This document shows positions 4,248-30,588 of a DNA stretch of 32,000 bases, in pieces. A model generated the notes under the pieces. It saw nothing but the letters and a program-made list of their open reading frames with translations, searched no databases and had not been told where the DNA came from. Source of the stretch: Candidatus Omnitrophota bacterium (lineage in GTDB: Bacteria > Omnitrophota > Gorgyraeia > 2-01-FULL-45-10); assembly GCA_023818895.1 (NCBI GenBank), contig JAMWCX010000003.1, forward strand, positions 1 through 32,000, written 5' to 3'. Both the position numbers and the translations under genes were made by a program. Position 1 is the stretch's first letter; each line of letters opens with the position of its first letter.

Positions 4248-4254
4248 CTGACTG

Positions 4255-10778: not shown

Positions 10779-12185
10779 TTACACCTTACACATTACTGGA
10801 GTCTCCGCATTTACGCCCAGCGCCGCCATAAGCCCTCTGGCCTTGTGAAGCGTCTCCTCATACTCGCCCTCAGGATCCGAGTCGGCCACGATCCCGCCGC
10901 CTACTTGAAAATAAATCCTGCCATCCTTTACCAAGAATGTTCTTATCACTATCGAGGTATCCATGTTGCCGTCTAATGAGATATATCCGATAGCGCCGGT
11001 ATAAACAGCTCTTTTCACCGGTTCAAGCTCGTCTATGATGGCCATTGAACGCATTTTTGGCGCGCCCGTTATCGAGCCGCCGGGGAATGTGGCCTTGAGG
11101 CATTCTATCGGGCCAATACCTGCCTTGAGTTTACCAGCGACCGTGGATACCAGATGGAAGACATTAGCGTATTTTTCTATTATCATCGACTCAGTCGGCC
11201 TGACGGTACCGTATTCGCATATCCTGCCCAAATCATTGCGCTCAAGATCCACGATCATAATATGCTCTGCCGCATCCTTGACGCTTGTCCTTAGCTGCGA
11301 TTCAAACAAACGGTCTTCTTCAATGGTCGCCCCACGAGGCCTTGTACCTTTTATCGGACGAGTCTCTATATAGTCTTTTCTTTTCATAATAAAACGCTCC
11401 GGTGAAGAACTGAGAACGGTAACATCGCCGAAATTCAAGTACGAGGCAAATGGAGCGGGGCTCACCTGCCTCAGCCTGCAATAAAGCGCAAAAGTATCAA
11501 CATCGCTAGTGGTTGAGAAACGTTGGGAAAGATTGACCTGATATATATCGCCCTTTTTAATATATTCTTTCGCTTTCTGAACGGCCTTCATATAGGCTCG
11601 TTTTGTAAAATTTGACTCAAGCCTGATATGTGAACAAGGCATCGGTATCTTGACCGGTGGTGATGCGCTTAATACGGCCTCCTTGAGATCTTCGGTATCT
11701 TCATCTGCCATAGCCAGACTTGCCAGAAAGCATCTTTTCTTGAGATTGTCATACGCAATCACCTTGTTGTAGAAACCAAGGATGCAATCCGGGATGCCAA
11801 GATCATCTTCGGCGCTACTGGGCAGCTCCTCTATAAGATCTTTAAGATCATACGAAAAATATCCGACGGCTCCTCCGGTAAACGGTACCTCGCAGCCATC
11901 GGGTCGTGCCGTCCTATAACGGTCAAATAAACCTTTAAGGGTAGCGAACGGATCTGCCCTGAAGATTTCTTTCTTTCCACTATCATCTTCCAGAGTAATG
12001 AGTTTGCCTTTGCTCCTGAAGACGAGAAAAGGAGAATGTCCTATGAAAGAGAAATTTCCGAGCTTTGCGGAATCGCAGGCACTATCGAGAAAAAAACTGT
12101 AGGGACGGTCCTTTATCACGGAAAATACGGTTAGAGGATCGGGCGCTTCGTTAATCTCTTCAACCTTTTGTCTTATCTCGTTCAT
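10779..12185 (-). CDS. pabB: Chorismate-utilising enzyme, aminodeoxychorismate synthase component I (PabB/TrpE family)
   Basis: Motifs include SSSPERF, RPIKGTRPRG, IMIVDLERNDLGR and FPGGSITGAPKMRSMAIIDELEP...YTGAIGYISLDGNMDTSIVIRT. Pairing with a class IV lyase-like gene favours PabB over TrpE. Confidence 0.8.
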   Translation of the reverse strand: MNEIRQKVEEINEAPDPLTVFSVIKDRPYSFFLDSACDSAKLGNFSFIGHSPFLVFRSKGKLITLEDDSGKKEIFRADPFATLKGLFDRYRTARPDGCEVPFTGGAVGYFSYDLKDLIEELPSSAEDDLGIPDCILGFYNKVIAYDNLKKRCFLASLAMADEDTEDLKEAVLSASPPVKIPMPCSHIRLESNFTKRAYMKAVQKAKEYIKKGDIYQVNLSQRFSTTSDVDTFALYCRLRQVSPAPFASYLNFGDVTVLSSSPERFIMKRKDYIETRPIKGTRPRGATIEEDRLFESQLRTSVKDAAEHIMIVDLERNDLGRICEYGTVRPTESMIIEKYANVFHLVSTVAGKLKAGIGPIECLKATFPGGSITGAPKMRSMAIIDELEPVKRAVYTGAIGYISLDGNMDTSIVIRTFLVKDGRIYFQVGGGIVADSDPEGEYEETLHKARGLMAALGVNAETPVMCKV

Positions 12186-12195: not shown

Positions 12196-12693
12196 TCACG
12201 CGAGCGCTTCTGTCAAGATATCAGCGAGCGCCTCAAGGCCGCCAGAGACCTCGCTACTTATCGGTGCCCCTAAAGCCGTTGTTTTGGCCTGCACCGATAT
12301 CACGAATATATTGAGGTCCTCCTTACCTGTCTTCAAGAGATCGATAAAAAGTCTTGGCGATGGGTTATGGGTGGAAAATCCTACATTGGCGATACATTCT
12401 ACATCTAAGACCTTTGCCTGGCCAGCCGGCAGGCCGATATCGGCGGCGTCGATAATTATTACTGTCGAACAGGCCGAGGTAAGTATTGGGAAAAGATAAT
12501 TTTCGGGCGCTGTGCCGCAATCAAAGAGGCTCGCTTTCGTTGAACGGGCTTTCAGAAGTTCTATAAGCCTAGGACCAAGGCCATCGTCGCCGCGCATAAT
12601 GTTGCCAATGGCAGCTATGGCTACTTTTCCTTGTATTCTTTTCCTGATTTCCGCAGTAAGATCGTCGCTAGAAGGGCCTTTAGAAACGTTCAA
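12196..12693 (-). CDS. hycI: [NiFe]-hydrogenase maturation endopeptidase (HycI/HybD family)
   Basis: Motifs are VAIAAIGNIMRGDDGLGPRLIELL, DCGTAPENY, IIIDAAD and FSTHNPSP. The adjacent large subunit carries a cleavable C-terminal extension. Confidence 0.85.
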   Translation of the reverse strand: MNVSKGPSSDDLTAEIRKRIQGKVAIAAIGNIMRGDDGLGPRLIELLKARSTKASLFDCGTAPENYLFPILTSACSTVIIIDAADIGLPAGQAKVLDVECIANVGFSTHNPSPRLFIDLLKTGKEDLNIFVISVQAKTTALGAPISSEVSGGLEALADILTEALA

Positions 12694-13300
12694 TAGTGGC
12701 TTTTCTCCTGCACTTTGCGCAGAGAATCTTCATTCTGTCGAACCGAAGCATGTAATCTCTTGCGATTTGCGCGATATCTTCAGAGAATCCGAGATCCTTA
12801 AGCGATGACACGAAAATCGTTGGGTTGGCAAACGCGAGTGGACCCAATCTTTTGGCTAACCATTCTAGGTGTGCCTTTGCCGTAATAACATCGCCACAGC
12901 ATTCGCATATAGCCAGTTCTTTATCTTCCGTAGATGATATCATAGCTGTCCTGTCAAATCCGGCAAGGTCAAATTCAGTGGTATGTCTTATTCCTGGCGG
13001 CATATCTTCCCTTGTGGTGCAGAGAGCGCTGCACTGACCGCAGAAATGGCATTCGTCAAGGTGCAGGACCATTTTGCGAACCGCCCTTTGAGGCGTTACC
13101 GTATCGCGACATTCTATAGCCCTTGCCGGACATACCAAAGCGCATGCGCCACAAGCAACACAGCCTTCATTTGAATATTCAGGTTTACCGCGGAACCTCT
13201 TTGGAGGATTGTGCGGCTTGAAAGGATAAGAAGAAGTATAAGGTCCATTTATCAGGGCCTTTATCGCTTCTTTAAGTTCTCTTAGCTTAGGATATTTCAT
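12680..13300 (-). CDS. HycF/NuoI-type 2x[4Fe-4S] subunit of the membrane-bound hydrogenase
   Basis: It has YPFKP...RFRGKPEY, then CVACGACALVCP and CHFCGQCSALC. A C-terminal CECCG...CAKCRRK pair follows, like the CNCRVC...CPECKRQK pair I recall in E. coli HycF. Confidence 0.8.
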   Translation of the reverse strand: MKYPKLRELKEAIKALINGPYTSSYPFKPHNPPKRFRGKPEYSNEGCVACGACALVCPARAIECRDTVTPQRAVRKMVLHLDECHFCGQCSALCTTREDMPPGIRHTTEFDLAGFDRTAMISSTEDKELAICECCGDVITAKAHLEWLAKRLGPLAFANPTIFVSSLKDLGFSEDIAQIARDYMLRFDRMKILCAKCRRKATIERF

Positions 13301-13304
13301 GTTC

Positions 13305-13901
13305 CTAAAAAAGCTTAACTATGTTAGAGGAATGTCTTGCCAGGTTACCGGTAAAGTCCAACATATCGAAAAACATGTTGGCGGCCATAGGCGTGCAAAT
13401 ACCTTTGATGAGACGCTCGGTGTGTTCGGCTCGGTAGCGCTCAACGAGGGCCTTCACATGAAAACCGTTATCTATGACTCTTTCTCTCAGCACGCTGTCA
13501 CCGCCTTTTAAAAATTCCCTCATCATATTGACAGATTTCTTCATCGTAAGAAAAGTCTCATTAAATTGCGCCACGCCAATATCGCTGAATAGCAAGTGCT
13601 CCGAGTTCTTTATCTCTATGCGCTCCACAAGGTTTGAGGCCTCATCGCCCATGCGTTCGAGCATCTCGACGGTTTGCTGGAGCCGAACGAGTTCTTTCTT
13701 ATCCTCCTCGCTCTTCAGGGATTTTGACAGCTCAAGAACTCTTTTCGTCGAGGCCTTTTCCATTTTATTTATTTCAGATTCGATTTCCATGGCAATGGTA
13801 AGAGCTCTAGGGTTGTGCTCCATAAAACCATTCTCTACAAATTCCAGCATCTCGCAGATCTTATCTGCCATGGATATGGCAGTTGAGCGTATCTCGTTCA
13901 T
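13305..13901 (-). CDS. Soluble PhoU-like (two-repeat helical) protein embedded in the hydrogenase/Mrp operon
   Basis: No hydrophobic segments are present. There are two repeats with a PhoU-type signature: EIESEINKME...LERMGDEASNLVERI and VKALVERYRAEHTERLIKGICTPMAANMFFDMLDFTGNLARHSSNIVKL. This resembles PhoU and the C-terminal repeats of Na/Pi-cotransporter proteins. The assignment is from memory of the family pattern only. Confidence 0.5.
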   Translation of the reverse strand: MNEIRSTAISMADKICEMLEFVENGFMEHNPRALTIAMEIESEINKMEKASTKRVLELSKSLKSEEDKKELVRLQQTVEMLERMGDEASNLVERIEIKNSEHLLFSDIGVAQFNETFLTMKKSVNMMREFLKGGDSVLRERVIDNGFHVKALVERYRAEHTERLIKGICTPMAANMFFDMLDFTGNLARHSSNIVKLF

Positions 13902-13907
13902 AAATAC

Positions 13908-14243
13908 CTATCTTATATTTTCCATGTCGTTGCTGTATTCATCAACAACGGTTCCTTCCCATGGCTTAACACCTGAGCGATAAGCGCTCCTTGCCAGAGC
14001 GTGCGCTGATACAGGCGCCGTCAGTAGAATAAAAACCATGCAAAGAAGCGCCTTAACCCCAGTCGCAGTAAGGCCTTTGAAAAGGAAAAGGCCTAAAAGG
14101 ATACCGCAGGTGCCCAGAGTTATGCATTTTGCGGAAGCCTGCAAGCGGTTATAGACATCAGGAAATCGTATAAGGCCGAGGCATCCGAAAAAATCAAATA
14201 TAAGACCTATTACGATTAATGCGGTCCCTATCGTCTCATTCAT
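13908..14243 (-). CDS. mrpG: Mrp/Mnh antiporter subunit G (MbhC-like)
   Basis: It has three TM segments and the motif GCLGLIRFPDVYNRLQASAKCITLG typical of MnhG. It overlaps mrpF by 8 nt. Confidence 0.8.
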   Translation of the reverse strand: MNETIGTALIVIGLIFDFFGCLGLIRFPDVYNRLQASAKCITLGTCGILLGLFLFKGLTATGVKALLCMVFILLTAPVSAHALARSAYRSGVKPWEGTVVDEYSNDMENIR

Positions 14244-14592
14244 CGAACTCTTTGCCCTCTAAATACTTAGAAAGCGCCATGATACCAATAAAGCTCTGCA
14301 GCGCCCAAGCTATTCCTATATCTATGTACCAGTCCCTTCCCGTTGCTATGCTTAAGACTGCGCAAAAACCAACTATTAGTATTCCAAGCATATCTATCGC
14401 TACAGCCCTATCAGGTGCCGTCGGTCCACGCAGAACCCGCCAGAGACAAAGCCCGGCGGATACAAGCAGGCATAAGAAAGCACGCTCCAAAAATTCCGAC
14501 TGCCACTGCATCATAGAAGGCAAGGGCAATAAAAGTATCGCAGCCGCAATGATAACTATGACGATAAATCCAAACACCCAGTTTGTATTCAT
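14236..14592 (-). CDS. mrpF: Mrp/Mnh antiporter subunit F (MbhB-like)
   Basis: It is a small three-TM protein with RVLRGPTAPDRAVAIDMLG, the MnhF signature. Confidence 0.75.
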   Translation of the reverse strand: MNTNWVFGFIVIVIIAAAILLLPLPSMMQWQSEFLERAFLCLLVSAGLCLWRVLRGPTAPDRAVAIDMLGILIVGFCAVLSIATGRDWYIDIGIAWALQSFIGIMALSKYLEGKEFDE

Positions 14593-14597
14593 AATAT

Positions 14598-15107
14598 TTA
14601 TTCGAATATCTTTTTTAATATCTTCTCATACTTCGTTACAACAGGAAGCCTGGTCTCTCCATCTCTGATAGACAGGCAATGTACATATAAATAGCCACTG
14701 GGCTTATCAATATCGACAGTCGTTCTGCCAGGCGTCAATGTCAAAGAATTGGCCAAGAATGCAAGGCCGATATCGGATTTAAGGTCAACTTTTACCTTTA
14801 TCGTCCCTGGCCTTATGGGAAGCGCTGGATGTAGAACCCGATACGCCACATCGATATTGGCCTTGAAACACTCCCAAACAAAAACCATTACATACCACAA
14901 GAACCAGAATGGCCTTGCGATCGCCTTTCCTTTTCCACAACGAGATATTTTATTTTCGGCGGAGGTATCAAACATTAGATCCAGCGTCATGTAGGATACA
15001 AATAAAGAGACTGCTACGGCATAAATCGCGTCCACCAGCGCCGGCGGCCACGACAGGCCGATCCATACAAAAAACCATAAGAGAAAAAGTGATATTTTGC
15101 GTCTCAT
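14598..15107 (-). CDS. mrpE: Mrp/Mnh antiporter subunit E (MbhA-like)
   Basis: N-terminal TM helices are followed by NSLTLTPGRTTVDID, an MnhE-type motif. It overlaps mrpD by 4 nt. Confidence 0.7.
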   Translation of the reverse strand: MRRKISLFLLWFFVWIGLSWPPALVDAIYAVAVSLFVSYMTLDLMFDTSAENKISRCGKGKAIARPFWFLWYVMVFVWECFKANIDVAYRVLHPALPIRPGTIKVKVDLKSDIGLAFLANSLTLTPGRTTVDIDKPSGYLYVHCLSIRDGETRLPVVTKYEKILKKIFE

Positions 15108-16600
15108 TTCAAAGCCTCGAAAACTACATCGGTATAACTTATGCCTCTAACAAGGGAGGCGACCGCGCCATCCATGAAGACGTTTCCCACAACCGGAATA
15201 AGGATAAAGGCGGCAAGCGCCACCAACACCGTCAGGGCAACCATGGGCGCGTTCATTGTAAAAAGACTCTTAGCCTTAATCTGCTTCGAGGTTGTAACAT
15301 TACCGAATAATACAGGAGTATATGATTTAAAATAATAGGCAAGCGTCAGGATGCTCACCACTACAGCCGTCAGCGCGAGAATAGGGCGTCCAGCCTGTAT
15401 ACAGGCAAGTATGATGATAAACTTAGACCAGAAACCGCCAAGCGGAGGCACGCCGCATATCGAAAGGGCGCCGACAAGACCAGTGTAAGCGGTAAGAGGC
15501 GCTTTGTCAAGGATACCGGCTATCTTACCCATATCTCTTGTGCCGGCAACACGCTCTATAGAACCTGAATTTAAAAACAGAAGCGATTTAAAAAGACTGT
15601 GGTTGAAAAGATGAAAAAGCGCTCCGAAGATAGCGAGGGGGGTTCCCACACCGAGACCTAAAGCTACATAGCCTATCTGGCTAACAGTCGAGTACGCGAG
15701 CATCCTCTTTATATCTGACTGGACAAACGCTAACATGCTACCTACAATCATCGAAAGAACTGCAAGAGTCAATATCATAAACGATATGACAGGCGTGATG
15801 CCAAAGACATTAAAGAATATGCGCGCGATAGCATACATGCCAAGCACTTTTATAACAACGCCGGAAAGCATTGCCGATACCGGCGCTGGCGCAGAAGAGT
15901 GAGCATAGGCAAGCCACGCGTGGAACGGCGCGAGGGCGGCCTTGAGACCGAATCCCATCAAGAATAGAACGCTCGCTAAAAGAAGCGCCCCTGATGGTCC
16001 TTTGGAAGCCAAGACACTAGCCATGTCGGCCATGTTTAGAGTAGAGCTATAACCGTAGAGGAACGCGATGCCAAGGAATATGAAACACGATGCAACGGTT
16101 CCCATAACCGCGTATTTGAATGAAGCCTCGAGTTCTTCGGCGGTGGTACCAAATGCCACCAAAGCATACGCCGCTATAGCCGCTATCTCCATAAATATAT
16201 ATAGGTTGAACACGTCACCGGACACCAGGACGCCGTTTATCCCTGCAAGCAGAAGAAGAAAAAGCGCGTAGAATTTCCATTTATCCGTGTATTTTTTCAT
16301 ATAGCCGGTTGAATAAAAAAGCGCGGCGAGCGCTATTAAATTTACCGTAACAAGCATGAACGCCGCGAGCCCATCTATCACAATGGACACACCGAAAGGT
16401 GGAACCCAGCCGCCAACCTTATATACAATGGCGCCAGAAGAACCGGCGCCAGATAATACCGTTATGGCAAATAGCGAAAGCGTAAGCGTCGCGAGGGCCG
16501 CCAGGCACGCTATACAATCCTGAATGCGCTCGTCAAGATTGGCAATCATCGCCACCACAAATGCGGAGGCAAGTGGTATCGCTATGAATGATATTTCCAT
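15104..16600 (-). CDS. mrpD: Antiporter-like subunit MrpD/NuoN/MbhH family
   Basis: This 498-aa polytopic protein has proton-pumping-subunit motifs (FHAWLAYAHSSAPAPVSAMLSGVVIK, AYSTVSQIGY, HLFNHSLFKSLLFL). Confidence 0.85.
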   Translation of the reverse strand: MEISFIAIPLASAFVVAMIANLDERIQDCIACLAALATLTLSLFAITVLSGAGSSGAIVYKVGGWVPPFGVSIVIDGLAAFMLVTVNLIALAALFYSTGYMKKYTDKWKFYALFLLLLAGINGVLVSGDVFNLYIFMEIAAIAAYALVAFGTTAEELEASFKYAVMGTVASCFIFLGIAFLYGYSSTLNMADMASVLASKGPSGALLLASVLFLMGFGLKAALAPFHAWLAYAHSSAPAPVSAMLSGVVIKVLGMYAIARIFFNVFGITPVISFMILTLAVLSMIVGSMLAFVQSDIKRMLAYSTVSQIGYVALGLGVGTPLAIFGALFHLFNHSLFKSLLFLNSGSIERVAGTRDMGKIAGILDKAPLTAYTGLVGALSICGVPPLGGFWSKFIIILACIQAGRPILALTAVVVSILTLAYYFKSYTPVLFGNVTTSKQIKAKSLFTMNAPMVALTVLVALAAFILIPVVGNVFMDGAVASLVRGISYTDVVFEALK

Positions 16601-16602
16601 AT

Positions 16603-16941
16603 TTAACCTTTAAGCTTCGTTATCTTTGTTATATCGAACGTCCCGTATCGCTCATAGATCCGTATCGCTATCGCTACCAACAGAAGCGTAACCGAAAGAC
16701 CGAGCACAATACCCGTAAGAACGACCGATTGCGTAAGCGGATCGACCATGCTCTTTATCTCCTGGTCAATGGCATATATTGGCGAGCGACCGTGTGTTCG
16801 GTACCCCAGAAGCACAAAGAACAGATTTGCCGCGTACTCCATAATACCTATACCTATTATTATCTTTATGACATTGCGTTTTCTCAGTATACAGTAAAGG
16901 CCTACGGAAAAGAGAACCAGGCACAGCATATATGATATCAT
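16603..16941 (-). CDS. mrpC: MrpC/NuoK-like subunit (MbhG-like)
   Basis: It is a three-TM NuoK-like protein. I moved the start to the ATG at 16941 (MISYMLCLVLF...). That ATG has a GAGGGG RBS and lies 4 nt after the upstream stop. The track ORF's 23-aa extension overlaps mrpB. Confidence 0.75.
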   Translation of the reverse strand: MISYMLCLVLFSVGLYCILRKRNVIKIIIGIGIMEYAANLFFVLLGYRTHGRSPIYAIDQEIKSMVDPLTQSVVLTGIVLGLSVTLLLVAIAIRIYERYGTFDITKITKLKG

Positions 16942-16945
16942 AGCT

Positions 16946-17368
16946 TCATTTCCCCTCTTCGGCGTCTCTGTCCTTTTTGGAGAGAAGAACGAGCGCCACG
17001 AATATAGCAAAAAGCGCGGAGGCAGTTATCACCGCCTGGCAAATAGGTATTATTATCTCGGACACCAAACCCCTGCAACGAAAACCTAACACCACTATAG
17101 TCAGGAAGACTAAAGTCGACAGGCCTAAAATGACACGAAGGCCTGATGCATGCAACCTATTAAGCGCCGCCTCCTTACCAAAAGCGAGCATGACATGGAC
17201 AAGGGAAAGCGCCACTATAACGCCCCCCGCGAAACCGCCACCCGGCTCTACATGTCCGCTTACCGCTATATATATGCCGTAAAGGAGTATGAAACCAAGG
17301 GTAATCCTAGTAACCGTCTTTATTATCAACGTCATGCCCCTGTCCTCGGTGTTACCCATACGCTTCAT
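16946..17368 (-). CDS. mrpB: MrpB/MnhB-domain subunit (MbhF-like)
   Basis: It carries GHVEPGGGFAGGVIVAL, the MnhB-domain signature. An ATGA overlap links it to the upstream gene. Confidence 0.75.
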   Translation of the reverse strand: MKRMGNTEDRGMTLIIKTVTRITLGFILLYGIYIAVSGHVEPGGGFAGGVIVALSLVHVMLAFGKEAALNRLHASGLRVILGLSTLVFLTIVVLGFRCRGLVSEIIIPICQAVITASALFAIFVALVLLSKKDRDAEEGK

Positions 17369-17886
17369 TCCTTCCTGCGCGCCGATTTGCGGGCTATCGC
17401 GAGCACGCCTATTACAGCCGCGAATATGGCTGTCGCTTCGCCCAGCGTGTCGATGGCCCGGAAATTAATCGCTATCGCTTCCACAATGTTAAGGCTCCCT
17501 GTCAGCGGAAAGGCCTCTTCAAGATAAGTTCTCAACACCCTCATCTCTGGGCTACCGAACTGATGCACTGTCTTAAGCGCGATATAGGCCGCAAAAAGGA
17601 ATACGGCCAAGAATATCACGGTCGATGTGGTATTGAAAACCCAGCGCCCTGATACGCTAAAAGGTACGTCTTTTCTTATGGTAGCGCGTATGAGGATGAT
17701 GAGACTCAGGATTTCAACCACAAGCTGCATTATAGCGAGATCCGGAGCCTTCAGAACAAGAAATGCCATACAAAGTCCTATACCTACGCCACCGACGGCG
17801 ATAATGCTCGAAAGTAGGTCTTTCACTTCTACGGCAATTACCGCCGCCGCTATCATGAATAGAAGTATAAGATGTATCTCTATCAT
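17365..17886 (-). CDS. MrpA-C-terminal-like subunit (DUF4040/MbhD fused to an MbhE-like segment)
   Basis: The N-terminal half contains LKAPDLAIMQLVVEILSLIILIRA (MbhD/DUF4040-like). The C-terminal half contains NIVEAIAINFRAIDTLGEATAIFAAVIGV (MnhB-N/MbhE-like). Confidence 0.65.
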   Translation of the reverse strand: MIEIHLILLFMIAAAVIAVEVKDLLSSIIAVGGVGIGLCMAFLVLKAPDLAIMQLVVEILSLIILIRATIRKDVPFSVSGRWVFNTTSTVIFLAVFLFAAYIALKTVHQFGSPEMRVLRTYLEEAFPLTGSLNIVEAIAINFRAIDTLGEATAIFAAVIGVLAIARKSARRKE

Positions 17887-17890
17887 GCTT

Positions 17891-19699
17891 TTACCTTAAA
17901 AAAAGGAACAAAAACATCCCCACCATACCCAAGAGACACCATACCAGATATGTCGGCAACACACCGTTATGCAGGAACTTAAGAAAATCCGCCAGCGCGT
18001 ATACTGGCTTCCTGCCCAGATTGTATACGTCCATAGCTCCTTTTTCCTCCCGGGCATAGATACCTTTCAGCAGAGGTATTTCCTTTATTGTATTATAAAA
18101 ATCGGCTCCTGATATCCGGGGCAATGCCCGGGCGTCTTCTCCACCTATAAAAGACTCAACCGTCCGCAATCTTTTCGGAGCCATCACCGCGTATACTAGA
18201 AGGCCGATCAGTACGCCGACGGCCATGATGGAGGTGGCAAGAGTCGGATTCCAGGTTCCCAGATAAGAGGGACTAAGGGCGGTCGCTGGCATTATGAAAA
18301 GCGGAAGGGCTATCTTGAAAGCGAGTATGCCGAATATAAAACAAGCGGCCGCAAGCACGCAAATCGGCAATATCATCGAGAAGGATGCCTCTCTAACGTT
18401 CTTGAGGTTCTCGGAAGGACGGCCCAGGAATACCGCGTGAAGAAGCTTCATGAAGCTGGCGATGGTAAGCGCGCTTCCGAACATAGCAGCGACAAGCCAG
18501 ACGACCCAAAGATAGTCCTTTGAGGCGCTCGACTCTATTATGCCCTGATATATCATCCACTTGGACACAAATCCATTGAATGGAGGTATGCCGGATATGG
18601 AAAGCGATGCCACGAGAAATGATATAAAGGTGATCGGCATGTACTTCGCGAGTCCTCCGAGGTTGTCGAGGTCTTGCGTGAGGGCCTTTTTTTCCACGGA
18701 ACCGGCTGAAAGGAAAAGGCATGATTTATATATCGCGTGGTTCAGCATGTGGAAAAGCCCTCCGGCTATGCCTGTGGGGTTTCCGGTCCCTATGCCGAGC
18801 ACCATGTAACCGACCTGCGAGACCGCGTGATATCCCAGAAGCCTCTTAAGGTCATGCTGTATCAGGGCTATCACGACCGCAAGCACTATCGTCACCGCGC
18901 CGACTATTATGAGGACGGCATTGGTTATATGGTTTGCCACAAAAAGATCCAGCGATATCCTCGCAAGAAGGTATATCCCCAGAAGTTTATCCACTGAGGC
19001 AGGCAGGTATGCGGTAACGGACGCCGGCCCGTCCTCCGCCACATCAGGAAGCCATGAATGGAATGGCATCGCTCCCGCTTTGGCAAAACTCGCGATAACA
19101 AGCGAAAAGTATGCGGCGTAGGAGAAGGCGCCGGCAAGCTGCAGATGAACCTTGTCCATAGCAAAAGTTCCTGTAAGCGCCCATATTATTCCTATGCCAA
19201 ATATCATTATCGCGTCAGTGCCACCGATTATTATAATGGCTTTTTTCGCCGCCGCCGCCGCCTTCGGCGTTCCGTCCATCGCTACCATGAGATAAAGAAG
19301 CGCGGCGAGCATCCCCCAGAATACCAGCATTATGACTAGGTCATTTGCGAATAAAACACCTATCGATGAACCGAGCGTCATCAGCAGGTACCCGAAATAT
19401 CTGCCGAATGATTTGTCGATGTATGAGAAGGAATAAACTGTTATCAGTAGGGCAAAAAACGTTACCGCTAAGGCTATAAATGCCGAGAGGTTATCCGCAA
19501 GCAGGATAACCGACGAGCCATATTGCGAAAGTGATGGTTTATGCATGAATACAAATAACGATGCCGCGAAAGACGCCAGAGTTATTGCAAAGGCTACGAC
19601 CTTTGGCACAGCCCGCAGGCGGTCTGTAATGCCCAGACATAAGAAACCGGCCGCGATCGGGACAACTATCAGCATCAAAAGAGGATCTATATTATTCAT
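17891..19699 (-). CDS. Antiporter-like subunit NuoL/HycC/EchA family
   Basis: This 602-aa polytopic protein has FHSWLPDVAEDGPASVTAYL, GYHAVSQVGYMVLGIG and HMLNHAIYKSCLFL. It overlaps the large-subunit gene by 4 nt. Confidence 0.8.
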   Translation of the reverse strand: MNNIDPLLMLIVVPIAAGFLCLGITDRLRAVPKVVAFAITLASFAASLFVFMHKPSLSQYGSSVILLADNLSAFIALAVTFFALLITVYSFSYIDKSFGRYFGYLLMTLGSSIGVLFANDLVIMLVFWGMLAALLYLMVAMDGTPKAAAAAKKAIIIIGGTDAIMIFGIGIIWALTGTFAMDKVHLQLAGAFSYAAYFSLVIASFAKAGAMPFHSWLPDVAEDGPASVTAYLPASVDKLLGIYLLARISLDLFVANHITNAVLIIVGAVTIVLAVVIALIQHDLKRLLGYHAVSQVGYMVLGIGTGNPTGIAGGLFHMLNHAIYKSCLFLSAGSVEKKALTQDLDNLGGLAKYMPITFISFLVASLSISGIPPFNGFVSKWMIYQGIIESSASKDYLWVVWLVAAMFGSALTIASFMKLLHAVFLGRPSENLKNVREASFSMILPICVLAAACFIFGILAFKIALPLFIMPATALSPSYLGTWNPTLATSIMAVGVLIGLLVYAVMAPKRLRTVESFIGGEDARALPRISGADFYNTIKEIPLLKGIYAREEKGAMDVYNLGRKPVYALADFLKFLHNGVLPTYLVWCLLGMVGMFLFLFLR

Positions 19700-20886
19700 T
19701 GTTTCATCCTGAATCTTTCCCTTATTCGGGCGGTCTTCTCCTGCGAAAGTCTTACCAATTCCTGCGCCCTGAAAAGCTCTTTATTGGAATCATCCACGAC
19801 TATCATGCGCTCCGTACAGCAATAACAGGGATCTATAGCGGCCAGTATTATTGTGGCATCCGATACCGTCTCTCCTATAACCGTCTCCCTAAATGTCGGA
19901 AAGTTCATATAAGTCGGGGCCCGTATCTTGTGCCGAACCGGTGAATTTGTCCCATCGCTCTTGACGTAATGGAAAACCTCCCCCCTCGGCGCCTCAGCAA
20001 CTCCTATGCCCTCCCCTGGGGGTATCTCTTTGGGTTTTGAGTCTATAGGGCCATCTGGCAACCGGTCTAGGCACTGCCTGATTATGCGTGCGGATTCGTA
20101 CATCTCAAGTATCCTCACCACCGCCTTAGCGAAGACATCGCCTTTTTCTTGCGTAATTACGTTCCATTTGACCTTGTCGTACACACCGTAGGGATGGTCG
20201 CGCCTGACGTCAATATCATATCCGGAGGCCCTCGCCGTTGGGCCGAGCGCCGAGTATTCGATAGCCGCCTCTTTGGTCAATATGCCAATACCCTCAAGAC
20301 GAGTGTGAAGCACCGGATCGTCAAGCACAGCGCCTTTCAATATATCAAGCTGCTTTAAAAATTCGTCTAACCGAGTCAATATATAGGAGACATGTTCTTT
20401 CTCTATATCGCGCCGTACGCCACCTACTTTGTGCATGGCATAGTTCTGGCGATTACCGGTCACCATCTCCATGATATCGCATATCGGTTCCCTGTATTTC
20501 CATCCCCACATAAATACAGTGTTGTAACCAAGGAAGTGGCCCGCAAGACCGAGCCAGAGCATATGGGAATGGATTCTTTCGAGTTCTTGTGTTATTGTCC
20601 GTATATACAACGCTCTCTCCGGTACCTCTATGCCGGCAAGATCCTCTATGGCCTGAACGCAAGCTATCGGATGGCTTGATGAGCAAATGCCGCATATGCG
20701 TTCCACTATGAATATCGATTGGTCGAAACTTTTGGACTCAGATATCTTTTCTATGCCGCGGTGGTTGTATCCTATTCTGACATCCACATCCACGACGGTC
20801 TCGCCGTCAACAACCAGCTTCCAAAACTCGGGCTCTTCCTGGAGAGGATGATACGGCCCAATTGGTATCACAGGCTTAGCTTTCAT
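19696..20886 (-). CDS. Group-4 [NiFe]-hydrogenase large (catalytic) subunit, NuoD-like
   Basis: Both Ni-binding Cys pairs are present: N-terminal ERICGICSSSH (C65/C68) and C-terminal DPCYCCTER (C354/C357). A 36-aa C-terminal extension follows (MIVVDD...RFRMKQ) of the kind removed by HycI-type proteases. Confidence 0.9.
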   Translation of the reverse strand: MKAKPVIPIGPYHPLQEEPEFWKLVVDGETVVDVDVRIGYNHRGIEKISESKSFDQSIFIVERICGICSSSHPIACVQAIEDLAGIEVPERALYIRTITQELERIHSHMLWLGLAGHFLGYNTVFMWGWKYREPICDIMEMVTGNRQNYAMHKVGGVRRDIEKEHVSYILTRLDEFLKQLDILKGAVLDDPVLHTRLEGIGILTKEAAIEYSALGPTARASGYDIDVRRDHPYGVYDKVKWNVITQEKGDVFAKAVVRILEMYESARIIRQCLDRLPDGPIDSKPKEIPPGEGIGVAEAPRGEVFHYVKSDGTNSPVRHKIRAPTYMNFPTFRETVIGETVSDATIILAAIDPCYCCTERMIVVDDSNKELFRAQELVRLSQEKTARIRERFRMKQ

Positions 20887-21350
20887 GCTTTCCTCGAGTC
20901 TCTCTTAGGCACCACGAAATTCTTTCTTAATGGGTAGACCCCTTTTGGCCAATCATCCGGTAAAAGAAGCGGCCGCAGGTCCTCGTTCCCATCAAACTCC
21001 ACCCCAAAAAGCTCGTGTATTTCGCGCTCAATCCACCAGGCCGCTTTTGTCACAGTCGTTATTGTATCTATATGGGGATTGTCTTTATCCTTCAGTATTA
21101 CCCTTATCGTCACTATCACCCCTGAGGCATCATAAGCGAAGTGGTATAGTATCTCTATTCCGTCAAAATCATCTACGGCGCTGGCTATGTTAAAGCGCAT
21201 GCCCAGTTCCTTAAAAAGATATTTTGCCACATCAACGATATCTTTCGGATATATATCAATATATGCGCGCTTGGACGATTTGATCTCGGATTTAAGAATC
21301 CTGTCACCGTAACGATCGTTTATCTTCTTGACTATAGCGTCTATCGTCAT
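20883..21350 (-). CDS. NuoC/MbhK-like 30-kDa-type hydrogenase subunit
   Basis: At 155 aa, its size, position and ending (WWIEREIHELFGVEFDGNEDLRPLLLPDDWP) are typical of NuoC/HycE-N. Confidence 0.75.
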   Translation of the reverse strand: MTIDAIVKKINDRYGDRILKSEIKSSKRAYIDIYPKDIVDVAKYLFKELGMRFNIASAVDDFDGIEILYHFAYDASGVIVTIRVILKDKDNPHIDTITTVTKAAWWIEREIHELFGVEFDGNEDLRPLLLPDDWPKGVYPLRKNFVVPKRDSRKA

Positions 21351-21393
21351 TGCTGCCCTTTGTCCTATACTATTCGCGAATTTTCTTTAGTTT

Positions 21394-21825
21394 CTATTTG
21401 CCCTTCTTCGCTCGTATCTTACCTATAAGTTTAACCAGCGCCCCGATCGTCGCTTCCGGCTTTGGGGGACATCCCGGTATATACGCATCCACCGGTATAA
21501 TTTCATCAAGCGGCTCGCCAGTATTGTAGCTATCTTTAAAAAGCCCTCGCGATGAACCGCAGGCACCGTAAGCTATGACAAAAGCGGGTTTTGGCATCTG
21601 TTCGTATAGCTTCTTGATTCGCGGGATGGTAAGCCTGTTGGCCGATCCTGTGCATAGCAAAACATCCGCATGTTTGATGCTACCGACCAGTACTATCCCG
21701 AATCGCTCCAGATCAAAACGCGGCGTCAGGCAATCAAGTATCTCTATATCGCAGTTATTGCAGCTGCCGCTTGACAAATGAAATACGTATATCGATTTTG
21801 TAAGTATCTTCTCTTTAAATCCCAT
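21394..21825 (-). CDS. Group-4 [NiFe]-hydrogenase small subunit, NuoB-like (HycG/MbhJ/EchC)
   Basis: Four Cys for the proximal [4Fe-4S] sit in the family context: SGSCNNCDIE, YGACGSS and IPGCPPKPE. Confidence 0.9.
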   Translation of the reverse strand: MGFKEKILTKSIYVFHLSSGSCNNCDIEILDCLTPRFDLERFGIVLVGSIKHADVLLCTGSANRLTIPRIKKLYEQMPKPAFVIAYGACGSSRGLFKDSYNTGEPLDEIIPVDAYIPGCPPKPEATIGALVKLIGKIRAKKGK

Positions 21826-21828
21826 TGG

Positions 21829-22767
21829 CTAATACCCCAGATAAGCAAAAATAACCGATATCACCGCAAGCAAGGTAATCACAGTCCAAAAAAACCTCAG
21901 CGCCTGGTCAATTCTCACTCTTGGATTCGTATTCTTTATCACTATCATCAGAATGAGGATAAAAAGATAAGAAAGAATAGTCTTTACGATGCCCGCTGCG
22001 GAAAATGCCAGTCCTCCAAAATACAATGTTACCAATAAAATCGGCACTACAAACATCAGTATTGACTTGGTAAGTTTTAATATAGCCAGCGCCTTGCCTG
22101 AATATTCTATATACGGCCCCGCGATAATCTCGGTCTCCGCCTCCGGGATGTCAAAAGGTATGAATCCGAGTTTGGCCTGCACACACAAAAGCATAGCAAA
22201 AAACGAGATGGCTCCGGAGAAACTTGCTATCAGGGTCCCGTTTGACTGCTGATATAATATGATCTCTCCCAGCCTGATTGCCGACCCAGACTTCATTATC
22301 GGAACTGCGAGCGCTAGTATAAACGGTAGTTCGTACGATAGCATGAGTTTCATCTCGCGCGAAGCGCCAAGTGAGGCAAAAGAATTCCCTGATGAAAAAG
22401 CACCTATTATAAGCGATAACGGCGGAATTAAAAGAAGATATACCACAACGATCAAGTCGCCGATGAAACCGCTATGTGGCTTAACATTTGAGACCAGTAC
22501 CAACGTCGATACCAAGGTTGCCGCAGCAAGTCCTACAATGGGCATACCAAGGAAAATTATCTTTGGCGCACCGTGAGGTACCAGCGTCTCCTTGTAAAGG
22601 GCAAGTTTAATAAAATCCACAAAGTTCTGGTACCATGGTGGTCCAGCCCGCCACTGAAGGCGAGCGGTCAGCTTCCTATCGATCCACCCCACAAACAACC
22701 CCATGGTAGCCGAGAAGAGAAGGCCTGGAAAAACCAGAAATAAGAATAGTTGTTCAGCTATTTTCAT
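21829..22767 (-). CDS. NuoH/HycD/MbhM-like membrane subunit
   Basis: It is a polytopic protein containing RKLTARLQWRAGPPW and PFDIPEAETEI, both NuoH-family motifs. I prefer the ATG at 22767 (MKIAEQLFLF...) over the track's TTG at 22815. Confidence 0.8.
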   Translation of the reverse strand: MKIAEQLFLFLVFPGLLFSATMGLFVGWIDRKLTARLQWRAGPPWYQNFVDFIKLALYKETLVPHGAPKIIFLGMPIVGLAAATLVSTLVLVSNVKPHSGFIGDLIVVVYLLLIPPLSLIIGAFSSGNSFASLGASREMKLMLSYELPFILALAVPIMKSGSAIRLGEIILYQQSNGTLIASFSGAISFFAMLLCVQAKLGFIPFDIPEAETEIIAGPYIEYSGKALAILKLTKSILMFVVPILLVTLYFGGLAFSAAGIVKTILSYLFILILMIVIKNTNPRVRIDQALRFFWTVITLLAVISVIFAYLGY

Positions 22768-22810
22768 ATGAAGCGATCCCGATATTAGACATTGCGGCGT
22801 TAAACGGCAT

Positions 22811-22857
22811 ATCAAAATTAAATTTTTTTGAATCTCGGATTCTTATTTTGATTTTTG
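22811..22857 (-). repeat. Intergenic repeat copy 1 (three collinear A/T-rich blocks)
   Basis: The plus-strand blocks are ATCAAAATTAAAT (22811-22823), TTTTGAATCTC (22826-22836) and TGATTTTTG (22849-22857). The same three blocks recur in the same order at 24286-24358. Confidence 0.3.
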
Positions 22858-22874
22858 GTTCTATATTTCGTGTT

Positions 22875-23378
22875 CTATTTTCTCTTCGAGATTTCAGGCA
22901 CCCTCTCCCACCTATAGGATGTCTTCACCAGCAGATGCTCTGATACACTAAATATATTTTCTTCTTTCTTTTCTTCAAATTCTCCGTATTGTATACCGCC
23001 CGCCGCGCAAGATTCCAGGCATATTGGCGACTCCTCTTCTCTTAGGCGGCCGAGACAGAAGTCACAGCGCGCTATTACGAAAGGTATAGTCTCTGGATAA
23101 ATGACGCCGAAAGGACATGCCCTAGAACAGGATTTACAAGAGGTACAGCGCATCATGTAACGCTTTAGCATGTTAGTGTCTTTTTGAAGCTCGATAGCCT
23201 CCCATGGGCAGGAGGCAACGCAAGGCGCGTCATCGCATCTGCGGCAATTAATAGCAAAGTGGGCAAACTCCCGCAGCGTATTTATCCCGTTATTCAACGG
23301 ATGCTGAATATAACTGCAGAGCATGCCGCAGTCATCGCATTTTGAGCATATATCGAGATCTATTAACAAACGTTTCAT
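22875..23378 (-). CDS. HycB/CooF-type four-cluster polyferredoxin (electron-transfer subunit)
   Basis: Four Cys groups are present: CSKCDDCGMLC, CRRCDDAPCVASCP, CTSCKSCSRACP and CDFCLGR...CLESCA. This pattern is typical of HycB/CooF/DmsB-type proteins. Confidence 0.8.
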   Translation of the reverse strand: MKRLLIDLDICSKCDDCGMLCSYIQHPLNNGINTLREFAHFAINCRRCDDAPCVASCPWEAIELQKDTNMLKRYMMRCTSCKSCSRACPFGVIYPETIPFVIARCDFCLGRLREEESPICLESCAAGGIQYGEFEEKKEENIFSVSEHLLVKTSYRWERVPEISKRK

Positions 23379-23454
23379 AGAATTCGAGTATTAAAAACGG
23401 TGATTTCTGTGCTTCGAGTTTCCGTTTTTATCCTTGTATTTTGACTTTTAACCT

Positions 23455-24276
23455 TTAATCCCATATGCCCGGCAGTTCCTTTATCTTATCGTATGTAAAA
23501 ACAGGCCCGTCCTTACAAGCATAATATGGTCCTATTCTGCAATGGCCGCACTTCCCCACCCCACAAGACATGTTCTTTTCCATCGAAAGATAAATATTAT
23601 GGTCCTTAAAACCCAGGTCGAGTAGTTTAAAGGTGGCGAACTTCATCATTACAGGAGGACCGCAGACGATCGTTACGGCGTTTTCCATATCAAGACCTTC
23701 GTCTTTGAGTATGGTGGTAACCAGTCCGACATTTCCTTTCCATGATGGGTCGCCGACATCACAGGTGATCGCGACATCAACATGCCCGGCCTTATCTCTC
23801 CAAGAATCTATCTCGTTCTTATACACTATGTCTGAGGGCGTCCTTGCTCCATATCTTAAAATTATTTTCTTATAGACATTCACGTCGTTGAATAGAGCGT
23901 ATAAAAGGGCGCGCAGTGGCGCCAGCCCTACGCCTCCACCTACGATATAAACCTCTTTACCCTTAAACTTCTCAAGCGGGTATTGGCTACCATAAGGACC
24001 CCGCAGACCAACAATATCACCGGGTTTTGCCTGATGAAGAAGCTTCGTAACTCTGCCAGCCGCCATTATGGTAAAATCGAGCGTCCCCTTGTGGTCGTGG
24101 TTAGAAGAGGGCGTAAACGGCGCCTCACCTATGCCGGGAAGCGTCAGATCCATAAACTGGCCGGCTCTGAAACCTATCTCCCCCTGCGGCCTTATAGTAA
24201 AGGTCTTTATCGTGGCTGTCTCGTTGGTTATGTTAAGTATCTCGGCCTTTATATACGCGTATGGGTTCTTCTTCAT
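23455..24276 (-). CDS. AsrB/HydG-type FAD + NAD(P)-binding + [2Fe-2S] oxidoreductase subunit
   Basis: It has a ferredoxin-reductase-type fold (RAGQFMDLTLPGIGEAPFTPSS; VYIVGGGVGLAPLRALL). The C-terminal CGVGKCGHCRIGPYYACKDGPVF is a [2Fe-2S] motif. At 273 aa it is close to the AsrB length I recall. Confidence 0.8.
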   Translation of the reverse strand: MKKNPYAYIKAEILNITNETATIKTFTIRPQGEIGFRAGQFMDLTLPGIGEAPFTPSSNHDHKGTLDFTIMAAGRVTKLLHQAKPGDIVGLRGPYGSQYPLEKFKGKEVYIVGGGVGLAPLRALLYALFNDVNVYKKIILRYGARTPSDIVYKNEIDSWRDKAGHVDVAITCDVGDPSWKGNVGLVTTILKDEGLDMENAVTIVCGPPVMMKFATFKLLDLGFKDHNIYLSMEKNMSCGVGKCGHCRIGPYYACKDGPVFTYDKIKELPGIWD

Positions 24277-24285
24277 AATCTAAAC

Positions 24286-24358
24286 ATCAAAAATTAAATA
24301 TAAAATTTAAACTTTTGAATCTCAGCTTTTTGTGTCAGTTTTTGAATTCTGATTTTTG
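24286..24358 (-). repeat. Intergenic repeat copy 2 (three collinear A/T-rich blocks)
   Basis: The plus-strand blocks are ATCAAAAATTAAAT (24286-24299), TTTTGAATCTC (24313-24323) and TGATTTTTG (24350-24358). Confidence 0.3.
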
Positions 24359-24361
24359 TTT

Positions 24362-25411
24362 TTACTCATGAGGCGGTTTATTCCACTTGCCACTAACAAG
24401 CCCTTTGAGCACTTCCCTTATGTCAATATCTCCTGCGCAGGCCTCGACGCATCGGCCACATCCGGTACATGCGAAAGAGTTCATCACCTGAGGGAAAAAG
24501 TCGAACTTTTTGTCAAAGCGGTTACGCAGTCTCTCATAAAGATGCTTGCGGGGATTCGCGCCTCCAGCGACCCGCGCGAATGTGTTGTATAGGCACGCGT
24601 CCCATATCCTGAAGCGCTTGGCGCCGAACCTGTCTTTCTCGTCGAAAAGCAGAAAACAGTGACACGTAGGGCAAGCAAGATTGCAAGCGCCGCACTCGAC
24701 GCATGTAGAGGCCATATCCTTCCAGAAATCGGTTGAATCGTAATTTTTCTTAACAACCCCTCTAATCTGATCGGTATTAGGTATCCCTCTTTTGTCAATA
24801 TAGCTCTGCACTTGCCTTTCGACCGCCTTGCGGGATGACTCCCTAATGGATCTGGCATGGGGGGAAGGCTCCTTGAAAAAGACATTGAAGCCGCTTATGA
24901 TCGCCTCTCCCTTGGGGCCACCAACTTCGACAATGAAATAGTTATCCACAGAAGAAAGATTCAGATCGAAGTCTTTGCGGGGATAAGGGGCTCCATCCAT
25001 GGCAAGGCAAAAACAGGTCTCCTTCGCATAAGTACAATCACATCCTATTATCGTGGTATTATCCCTGTTTTCGGCGTAGAATGGATCTCTTACGTCTCCC
25101 CCTTCGAATACAAAATCTTGGATTGCCAGACTTGCCAAGTCGCATGCCTTGACGCCGACAACTATGGCCGGTCTCGGATCTCTAGTCAAACCGTTAAAAA
25201 CTTTCTCCCGGGCAGGATTCAAGAAAGTCTTTAGTGGTTGGCTCTGCCTTATACCGCCGAGTTCGATAAGGTCCTCTTTGGAGGCATCAAACTCATCAAA
25301 ATATAATTTATCACCTTTGGCATAAGGGACGAAGACACGGTTGATCTCCGCGAGTCTTCCTAAAAGGTCGAAAAGGTCTTTTCTGGATATCGTATATAAA
25401 GCTAGTGGCAT
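24362..25411 (-). CDS. AsrA/HydB-type iron-sulfur subunit (anaerobic sulfite reductase A / sulfhydrogenase beta family)
   Basis: At 349 aa it carries CVECGACNLACPTCHCF and CTGCGRCVEACAGDIDI, plus an upstream CDCTYAKETCFC. It pairs with the AsrB/HydG-like gene. No AsrC-like siroheme subunit is present in the window. Confidence 0.75.
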   Translation of the reverse strand: MPLALYTISRKDLFDLLGRLAEINRVFVPYAKGDKLYFDEFDASKEDLIELGGIRQSQPLKTFLNPAREKVFNGLTRDPRPAIVVGVKACDLASLAIQDFVFEGGDVRDPFYAENRDNTTIIGCDCTYAKETCFCLAMDGAPYPRKDFDLNLSSVDNYFIVEVGGPKGEAIISGFNVFFKEPSPHARSIRESSRKAVERQVQSYIDKRGIPNTDQIRGVVKKNYDSTDFWKDMASTCVECGACNLACPTCHCFLLFDEKDRFGAKRFRIWDACLYNTFARVAGGANPRKHLYERLRNRFDKKFDFFPQVMNSFACTGCGRCVEACAGDIDIREVLKGLVSGKWNKPPHE

Positions 25412-25447: not shown

Positions 25448-25476
25448 ATTGTAAACCGATATAGTAGCTAAGTCAA
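25448..25476 (-). promoter_or_regulatory. Sigma70-type promoter for the hydrogenase structural operon
   Basis: The minus strand has TTGACT (25476-25471), a 17-nt spacer and TACAAT (25453-25448). The predicted A/U-rich leader of about 30 nt has no Shine-Dalgarno before the ATG at 25411. Confidence 0.45.
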
Positions 25477-25578: not shown

Positions 25579-25986
25579 CTAGAGCTTGACAATCATTGCC
25601 CGCGGCGGGCATGCCTTTACGCAAAGTTCGCAGGCGATACATTTGTCTGCATCGAATATGACCTTCATCGTCTTTTTGTCGGTATAGAGGGCTCCTGTGG
25701 GACATATGGTAACGCAGGCGCCGCAGTGGGTACACTTGTTTTCATCTCTAGAGACATCCTGATTTAACGGCTGTATCTTAACGCCAGCGGAGGTAAGATA
25801 CTTAATACCCTCCGCGTAGTTCTCCTTCTTGCCTTTAAGCTCAAGAACCATTATCCCCTCCTCTTGCGGGGTGATCTTGGCCTGCAATATATTAAAGACA
25901 AGATCGAAATCCTTAACAAGTTTATAGACTATTGGCTGATCTACCAATTTATGCGGAAACGTAAGCACTATCCTTTTTGAAACCAT
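25579..25986 (-). CDS. NIL-domain / 2x[4Fe-4S] ferredoxin fusion protein
   Basis: The N-terminal ~75 aa (RIVLTFPHKLVDQPIVYKLVKDFDLVFNILQAKITPQEEGIMVLELKG) look like a NIL domain. CTHCGACVTICP and CIACELCVKACP follow. Confidence 0.75.
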   Translation of the reverse strand: MVSKRIVLTFPHKLVDQPIVYKLVKDFDLVFNILQAKITPQEEGIMVLELKGKKENYAEGIKYLTSAGVKIQPLNQDVSRDENKCTHCGACVTICPTGALYTDKKTMKVIFDADKCIACELCVKACPPRAMIVKL

Positions 25987-27790: not shown

Positions 27791-27791
27791 T

Positions 27792-30491: not shown

Positions 30492-30588
30492 TACGAATGT
30501 AAACCATAACTATGATGGTATTTTTTAATGGTATGCGGTGCCTAATTTTTAAGCATCTCAAACCAAATCTAAGGAAAGGAGCTTTTAC

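Follow-up and report, generated by a model that had tools for sequence, protein, structure and literature searches.

A complete Hun-type group-4 [NiFe]-hydrogenase operon in an Omnitrophota genome, and the case for NAD(P)H as its possible electron partner

The 32,000-nucleotide stretch of DNA analysed here (positions 1 to 32,000 of contig JAMWCX010000003.1, from a Candidatus Omnitrophota bacterium; hereafter the window) carries on its reverse strand 18 co-oriented open reading frames (ORFs) encoding a membrane-bound hydrogenase. This operon is almost certainly a complete member of the Hun family, whose published electron partner is ferredoxin. Judged from sequence, the evidence leans towards NAD(P)H instead, a reading that is unpublished since the papers on these enzymes assume ferredoxin. 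On balance, and with modest confidence, we propose an NAD(P)H-coupled mechanism for Hun. More tentatively, Hun could be the first group-4 (complex-I-like) [NiFe]-hydrogenase to use pyridine nucleotides, being reversible, Na+/H+-coupled and, in many lineages, switched by Rex.

Hun was described as a 16-subunit complex with AsrAB-like HunAB, HunEFGP around the Ni-Fe site, P-module-like HunDHILK, Na-module-like HunIJKLMNO and unusual CGIC-CYCC motifs (Glass et al. 2021, bioRxiv 10.1101/536078). Its operon was found there in Atribacteria, Firmicutes, Omnitrophica, Elusimicrobia, Bacteroidetes and Kosmotoga isolates, and HunG was placed in HydDB group 4g yet distant from other 4g members, with ferredoxin as the proposed donor. 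Saganbacteria RX5A has a group-4 hydrogenase described as "enigmatic", its closest relatives being in Zixibacteria and Omnitrophica, with asrA-, asrB- and cooF-like proteins that the authors compared with NuoE/NuoF (Matheus Carnevali et al. 2019, PMC6349859), and "Group 4g, Mrp-linked" hydrogenases of Omnitrophota have been treated as ferredoxin-dependent Mbh (Williams et al., PMC8542988). The first-pass annotation of the window had taken the operon for a new hybrid architecture. Since the genes and motifs of the operon correspond one by one to those of Hun, it is a family member and that claim fails: the arrangement was already published as Hun, from genomes alone, and the combination of asrA/asrB/cooF with Mrp had appeared in 2019 (PMC6349859). 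The window shares with Hun the same 16 genes in the same order, HunAB without AsrC, CGIC and CYCC in HunG, and the Mrp-like Na+ module. It differs in a PhoU-like gene between hunO and hunP, in hycI after hunP and in a hyp cluster upstream, and the published model invokes ferredoxin whereas the evidence here favours NAD(P)H. Saganbacteria RX5A likewise has the asrA-, asrB- and cooF-like genes with Mrp-like subunits, but its locus includes a molybdopterin oxidoreductase and the window has none.

The unit occupies positions 12196-25411 (-) and is transcribed from 25411 to 12196. Its genes, identified by ORF calling, Pfam and NCBIfam, are given below in order of transcription, preceded by a promoter-like site.

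25448..25476 (-): promoter-like TTGACT-17-TACAAT, 37 nt upstream of the hunA start; a weak match, to consensus only
24362..25411 (-): hunA, AsrA/SHI-beta-like Fe-S protein, 349 aa (Fer4_22)
23455..24276 (-): hunB, AsrB/HydG/SHI-gamma-like, 273 aa (FAD_binding_6, NAD_binding_1, DHODB_Fe-S_bind)
22875..23378 (-): hunC, CooF/HycB-like polyferredoxin, 167 aa with 16 Cys (Fer4_11)
21829..22815 (-): hunD, NuoH/HycD/MbhM-like membrane anchor (PF00146, E 6e-64); start codon uncertain
21394..21825 (-): hunE, NuoB-type hydrogenase small subunit with one proximal [4Fe-4S] (PF01058)
20883..21350 (-): hunF, NuoC-like, unfused to the large subunit (PF00329)
19696..20886 (-): hunG, group-4 [NiFe] large subunit (Complex1_49kDa and NiFeSe_Hases both match)
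17891..19699 (-): hunH, NuoL/MrpA-N-terminal-like antiporter subunit, 602 aa (Proton_antipo_N, Proton_antipo_M)
17365..17886 (-): hunI, MbhD+MbhE, equal to the MrpA C-terminal part (PF13244, PF20501)
16946..17368 (-): hunJ, MrpB/MnhB (PF04039, NCBIfam)
16603..17010 (-): hunK, MrpC/NuoK-like (PF00420)
15104..16600 (-): hunL, MrpD-like second antiporter subunit, 498 aa (PF00361; NCBIfam MrpD-type, 347 bits)
14598..15107 (-): hunM, MrpE (PF01899)
14236..14592 (-): hunN, MrpF (PF04066)
13908..14243 (-): hunO, MrpG (PF03334)
13305..13901 (-): PhoU-domain protein, outside the 16 Hun subunits (PF01895; weak PDB PhoU matches)
12680..13300 (-): hunP, HycF/NuoI-like, 2x[4Fe-4S] (Pfam/NCBIfam; best PDB match E. 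coli HycF, 7z0s_F)
12196..12693 (-): hycI-type maturation endopeptidase (PF01750; TIGR00072 96 bits against a cutoff of 47)

Every gene named in the first-pass annotation is present where it was placed, but its total of nineteen drops to 18 since MbhD and MbhE form a single ORF, hunI. Its treatment of a "HycC-like" gene as a separate core gene of formate hydrogenlyase (FHL) was also revised by the NCBIfam matches: hunH covers the NuoL model end to end, hunI aligns with positions ~600-770 of the MrpA models, and together with MnhB they are the equivalents of MrpA and MrpB. The true start of hunK probably lies downstream of the listed TTG. A hairpin (CGGAGGTAT...ATACCTCCG) follows the upstream gene and precedes the promoter-like site of hunA.

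A one-genome-per-species scan with an alignment of the large subunit found a relative in at least 570 genomes, of which the 80 best loci (64-86% identity) were retrieved and their synteny established by tblastn and ORF-level blastp of the window proteins. These loci come from metagenome-assembled genomes (MAGs) labelled Omnitrophota, Planctomycetia, Clostridia, Actinomycetota, Hydrogenedentota, Nitrospirota, Elusimicrobiota, Acidobacteriota, Atribacterota, Fermentibacteria, Aegiribacteria and Spirochaetes; the labels were taken over from the deposited records, and some may be unreliable. All 16 genes are present as ORFs in the same order in 43 of the 44 loci that span hunA to hunP, which excludes chance, and in the remaining one (L002) hunB is visible by tblastn only. 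Furthermore, hunA and hunB adjoin the core in the same orientation in every one of the 51 loci with enough upstream DNA, and the suggestion that the flavoprotein pair is part of the hydrogenase is thereby borne out.

Within the operon, hunA, hunB, hunC and hunD are separated by spacers of 59-85 nt, whereas most later genes overlap. This spacing would suit an alternative in which HunAB, with or without HunC, form a separate soluble oxidoreductase, for example a sulfur/polysulfide or other reductase, that is merely co-transcribed with the hydrogenase; in a variant, H2-derived electrons would go to a non-nucleotide acceptor. The beta-gamma pair of the Pyrococcus furiosus soluble hydrogenase SHI does act as a sulfur reductase in vitro (cited in PMC8542988). 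However, the unbroken adjacency and shared orientation of the pair with the core, the lack of any terminator-like site in these three spacers by consensus scan and the absence from the window of a catalytic partner such as AsrC all speak against a separate enzyme, which we regard as very improbable.

The Mrp genes and the PhoU-like gene had been seen as a modular insertion between core genes. This does not hold, since the gene order is fixed across phyla and PhoU is optional: the PhoU-like gene is missing from 43 of 53 loci, lies between hunG and hunH in six and follows hunO in four. Loci that have it include L014, L023, L026, L052, L057, L059, L060 and L074, and in one further locus, L051, it lies by tblastn between hunD (NuoH) and hunE (small subunit). 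That the gene turns up repeatedly at different places suggests a functional connection, for example as an assembly factor or regulator. L051, from a Nitrospirota-labelled MAG, has a 3.8-kb insert between hunB and hunC (L051 3148-6963) with three ORFs, one of which has a type-IV-pilin-like N-terminus (FTLIEMII...). The insert was considered as a candidate for the reported molybdopterin gene and rejected, as by eye none of the three ORFs resembles one.

HunG contains the L1 motif RICGIC (within ERICGICSSSHP) and the L2 motif DPCYCCTER, the latter followed by a C-terminal tail of 36 residues. L2 reads DPCYCCTER in all 80 relatives, whose tails are 31-49 aa long, and hycI comes next after hunP in 44 of 53 loci. 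Since the Ni ligands, the tail and the HycI protease are conserved in the relatives, the four ligand cysteines being invariant, HunG belongs to a real [NiFe]-hydrogenase rather than to an Mbx/Nuo-like relic, as had been supposed. A protein search returned a sequence from a Candidatus Omnitrophica MAG that is 100% identical to HunG, and all 120 matches listed were at least 80% identical. A library of 50%-identity representatives yielded just two full-length proteins above 50% identity to HunG, one at 57% with DPCYCCTER and the other (P0241, 583 aa) at 60%; the remaining full-length representatives were at or below 49% and had other CxxC variants, so that the HunG clade is well separated. The 583-residue protein is a NuoC fusion with DPCYSCTER and appears as a sister form.

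Against solved structures, HunG scored 309 bits with MbhL (6cfw_L), 298 with HycE (7z0s_E), 220 with Nqo4 and 175 with MbsL. It is therefore about equally close to MbhL and HycE, its NuoC is unfused as in Mbh, and the core is no more FHL-like than Mbh-like; the term "FHL-type core" was imprecise and was dropped for one equidistant from Mbh and FHL. The E. coli FHL (group 4a, 7Z0S) shares with the window HycF-like and HycB-like subunits, the HycI protease and the C-terminal tail, but group 4a has fused NuoC-NuoD (HycE) together with FdhH, whereas in the window NuoC is a separate ORF and there is no molybdopterin gene. The Thermococcus Fdh-Mfh-Mnh and Codh-Mch-Mnh systems (group 4b) have a full Mrp module as the window does, but the formate dehydrogenase (FDH) or CO dehydrogenase (CODH) of their clusters has no counterpart in the window; FDH genes lie upstream in some relatives. 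Family scans of the window for a hidden molybdopterin, FDH, CODH or AsrC gene found none, in agreement with what had been noted before. The P. furiosus MBH (group 4d, 6CFW) is the best solved match to the large subunit and has separate NuoC and NuoD types, MbhD/E, Mrp-like subunits and a Na+/H+ module. It differs in having 14 subunits with a single antiporter-like one, direct use of ferredoxin and no flavoprotein, whereas Hun has two antiporter-like subunits (HunH and HunL) and the additional HunABC. Hun and complex I have homologous Q- and P-module subunits in common, as well as an input from pyridine nucleotides should the NAD(P)H reading hold; in Hun this input is of the AsrAB/SHI type rather than NuoEFG, and the acceptor would be H+ at an intact Ni-Fe site rather than quinone.

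Evidence on the electron partner comes from HunA and HunB. Both are full-length homologs of P. furiosus SHI subunits (group 3b, 9nez/9nf0), HunB of the gamma chain (9nez_C, E 3e-58) and HunA of the beta chain (9nez_B, E 2.6e-32). When 62 HunB orthologs were aligned with SHI gamma, the flavin motifs GEAPFTPSS and GRVT, the nucleotide motif GGGxGxAP, CGPPxM and the [2Fe-2S] motif C-x4-C-x2-C...C were all conserved. An AlphaFold2 model of HunB (pLDDT 79, pTM 0.81) gave as its best PDB match 9nf0_C (TM 0.85), the gamma chain of an entry titled "NADPH-bound Pyrococcus furiosus SHI complex", followed by NADH-cytochrome b5 reductases and NqrF. HunB is thus predicted, from its motifs and its modelled fold, to keep the nucleotide-binding site that had been expected of an AsrB-like protein. 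The residues of the NAD domain were also considered as a guide to NADH or NADPH preference, but the YGAR(T/S) stretch was ambiguous and this was set aside. HunA has 15 cysteines that are invariant in 59 orthologs, and its NCBIfam matches (ShyB 149 bits, HydB 131, AsrA 111) all fall under the cutoffs. Hun differs from both systems in which such a pair is known: SHI is a soluble enzyme with group-3 large and small subunits in an alpha-delta pair, while the Hun pair, with beta and gamma homologs below the equivalog cutoffs, sits on a membrane-bound core whose HunG is of the NuoD/group-4 type; and as members of AsrABC the proteins score 110.7 bits against a cutoff of 323 for AsrA and 226.8 against 288.6 for AsrB, AsrC being absent. 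In both SHI and AsrABC, the pair of the AsrA/AsrB type is the pyridine-nucleotide side of the enzyme.

The subunits between this pair and the Ni-Fe site are rich in conserved cysteines. The 16 cysteines of HunC are kept in 86-100% of 66 orthologs, which is consistent with four [4Fe-4S] clusters, and its PDB matches include the Fe-S subunit 8c0z_C and HycB (7z0s_B). HunE has four cysteines invariant in 74 orthologs, and the Fe-S cysteines of HunP, eight plus four, are invariant or nearly so. The four extra cysteines of HunP (C132, C135, C194 and C197) are 98-100% conserved in 53 orthologs, and C132 and C135 align with C-x-C-x-x-C in E. coli HycF. HunP may bind metal at a third site.

Four clusters in HunC would exceed the need of a simple wire, and this brings in a second alternative, namely that Hun has several inputs or is confurcating, with NAD(P)H entering at HunB and reduced ferredoxin at HunC or HunP to serve the same Ni-Fe site. 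In some lineages formate could also enter via an added FDH, and a low-potential donor would help to pull the oxidation of NAD(P)H. Formate-related genes do occur ~5 kb upstream of hunA in six loci, all from "Clostridia"-labelled MAGs and all upstream of a rex-hunA arrangement: an FdhA-like molybdopterin protein, a second HunA-like protein, MobA and FdhD in L034, L036 and L048, a NuoG-type FdhA in L024 and a FocA-like transporter in L031 and L073. These FDH-type genes suggest formate as an extra input in some lineages, not in the window, where there is no FDH. The FdhA-like genes fit the molybdopterin genes reported inside the operon of some MAGs (PMC6349859, bioRxiv 10.1101/536078). Against a confurcating enzyme, no candidate for a bifurcating flavin was found. 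A flavoprotein of the HunB type (PyrK/NfnA) is not the bifurcating site in Nfn. Sequence alone cannot separate this alternative from the NAD(P)H mechanism; we consider it improbable.

A link to the NADH pool is also seen in the regulation of relatives. A gene for Rex, with Put_DNA-bind_N and CoA_binding domains, stands directly before hunA on the same strand in 22 of the 54 loci with upstream DNA. Counting matches to the Rex operator TTGTGAA-N4-TTCACAA with up to two mismatches, boxes precede hunA or rex-hunA in 23 of the 54 (14 of the 22 with an adjacent rex and 9 of the 32 without), so that a rex gene, Rex operators or both are found before hunA in about half of the relatives. All the retrieved loci together, 1.23 Mb, contain 35 such matches, 24 of them at these hunA-linked sites. 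L024, L031, L034, L036, L048 and L073 each have a perfect box 25-40 nt ahead of hunA. Rex control in these relatives points to induction when NADH accumulates, and suggests that H2 evolution is the usual direction there.

In the NAD(P)H-coupled mechanism that we infer, the sequence of electron carriers, the nucleotide substrate, the ion coupling and its direction would be as follows. HunB would bind NAD(P)H at its FNR-type site and pass electrons to FAD and on to its own [2Fe-2S]. From there they would move through the Fe-S clusters of HunA, the four of HunC and the two of HunP to the proximal cluster of HunE, and the Ni-Fe site of HunG would reduce protons to H2; the reverse path would also be possible. 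Turnover at the HunG/HunE/HunD interface would be coupled to H+ and Na+ movement via HunH, HunL and the remaining Mrp subunits. Hun would thus be an NAD(P)H:H+ oxidoreductase coupled to ion movement and able to run either way, depending on the ion gradient, the H2 pressure and the redox ratio of the nucleotides. At high H2, the ion gradient would drive the disposal of NADH as H2; at low H2, or during H2 uptake, energy could be conserved.

The standard potentials (E0') of the couples are -320 mV for NAD+/NADH and -414 mV for H+/H2, from which the standard cost of evolving H2 from NAD(P)H is calculated as +18 kJ/mol. With H2 at 1-10 Pa, the couple H+/H2 is calculated to rise to about -265 to -295 mV, which puts the reaction near equilibrium or, with NADPH, makes it mildly favourable; it is close to equilibrium over the range of 1-100 Pa. 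The enzyme would be reversible, and about one ion at most could be exchanged per two electrons, in either direction.

A number of points weigh against coupling to NAD(P)H. The reaction yields little or no energy, yet the complex has two antiporter-like subunits as well as the Na+ module. The YGAR(T/S) stretch, which follows the second strand of the NAD domain in HunB, resembles the NADH-using NqrF as much as the NADPH-using SHI gamma. The perfect Rex boxes are confined to a few lineages that are related to one another, and so do not count as independent events. In the window itself, tblastn found no rex gene, no Rex box with up to four mismatches was found in the 700 nt upstream of hunA, and the nearest relatives (L001-L010) have neither rex gene nor Rex box. 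Rex control of the window operon was accordingly rejected, three weak matches within the window being at chance level. Elsewhere, Rex also controls ferredoxin-dependent and bifurcating hydrogenases, and the Rex link therefore shows a role in NADH balance and is not proof of the substrate. Hun is known only from genomes and is biochemically uncharacterised. Finally, ferredoxin is the published assignment for Hun and for the Omnitrophota "group 4g" (bioRxiv 10.1101/536078, PMC8542988).

If that assignment were correct, Hun would be a ferredoxin-dependent, Mbh-like enzyme that receives electrons from reduced ferredoxin at HunABC or HunP, evolves H2 and builds up a Na+ gradient by way of Mrp, the flavin site of HunB being vestigial, regulatory or structural. 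It would be in keeping with the HydDB label of 4g as putatively ferredoxin-coupled, with the closeness of HunG to MbhL, with the greater energy that ferredoxin-driven H2 evolution would give to a large pumping module and with the NIL-2x[4Fe-4S] ferredoxin gene directly upstream in the clade of the window. However, strong purifying selection acts across phyla on the motifs of HunB for FAD, NAD(P) and 2Fe-2S, which is not as expected of a vestigial site, and the pair is a pyridine-nucleotide module in both known contexts, SHI and AsrABC. The statement that AsrAB accept electrons from ferredoxin conflicts with the NAD-binding domain. The P. furiosus MBH takes ferredoxin without a flavoprotein module, and therefore the conserved flavoprotein in Hun needs another explanation. 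A purely ferredoxin-dependent Hun is for these reasons unlikely in our view.

Should NAD(P)H prove to be the partner, the metabolic models of Omnitrophota, Atribacterota and others would need revision, and group 4 would come to include an enzyme that directly connects the NAD(P)H pool with H2 and the ion gradient. Fermenters could then shed NADH as H2 with the help of the ion gradient, or gain energy from H2-driven reduction of NAD(P)+. Hun would be widespread in anoxic sediments and the subsurface, and a present-day analogue of the transition between hydrogenase and complex I. Since a relative is present in at least 570 species genomes and all 120 matches listed were so close to HunG, the family is probably one of the major routes by which H2 is turned over in sediments, aquifers and digesters, and one that has yet to be assayed. 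The presence of the hun operon in cultured Kosmotoga (bioRxiv 10.1101/536078) makes the question of the donor testable at the bench; in the literature searched, nothing relevant to the hydrogenase physiology of Kosmotoga was found.

The hyp genes that had been noted beside the hydrogenase are found upstream of the hun genes.

29243-30373 (-): hypF, C-terminal half
29011-29217 (-): hypC
27792-28871 (-): hypD
26789-27883 (-): hypE

The HypF of the window comprises the Kae1-like half only (positions 381-740 of 741 in TIGR00143), without the acylphosphatase, zinc-finger and YrdC parts; neither the N-terminal half of hypF nor hypA or hypB was seen in the window. Near relatives also have a short HypF (357-455 aa), and a full one of 759 aa is present in L033. 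Two genes lie between hypE and hunA: that of the NIL-domain 2x[4Fe-4S] ferredoxin at 25579-25986 (-) and one for a hypothetical protein of the PRK04334 family (295 bits, above the cutoff) at 25997-26716 (-). This pair is kept at the same place in ~13 Omnitrophota-type loci (for example L002, L013, L015, L039 and L056), and in L013 and L015 rex sits between it and hunA. At the other end of the operon, a pabB-like (chorismate-binding) gene at 10779-12185 (-) starts 10 nt past the hycI stop and is followed by a class-IV aminotransferase gene at 9906-10772 (-). The two are also found behind hycI in L001, L003, L004, L008, L009 and L015, and because of this recurrence they may be co-transcribed with hun in that clade.

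Elsewhere, the window contains a two-partner secretion pair, a TonB receptor and glnA. The TpsA-type exoprotein (at least 1390 aa, with TPS and YDG domains) is encoded by an ORF that runs from 4172 to 1 (-) and off the window; a c-di-GMP-I riboswitch lies in its leader at 4240-4340 (-) (Rfam, 72.5 bits), and its ShlB/FhaC-type TpsB partner is encoded divergently at 5437-7470 (+). Together these look like a c-di-GMP-controlled two-partner secretion adhesin of this Omnitrophota MAG. The glutamine synthetase frame at 30553-31998 (+) runs off the right end of the window, and residues 17-60 of this open frame, which match HTH_17, may lie upstream of the true start codon.

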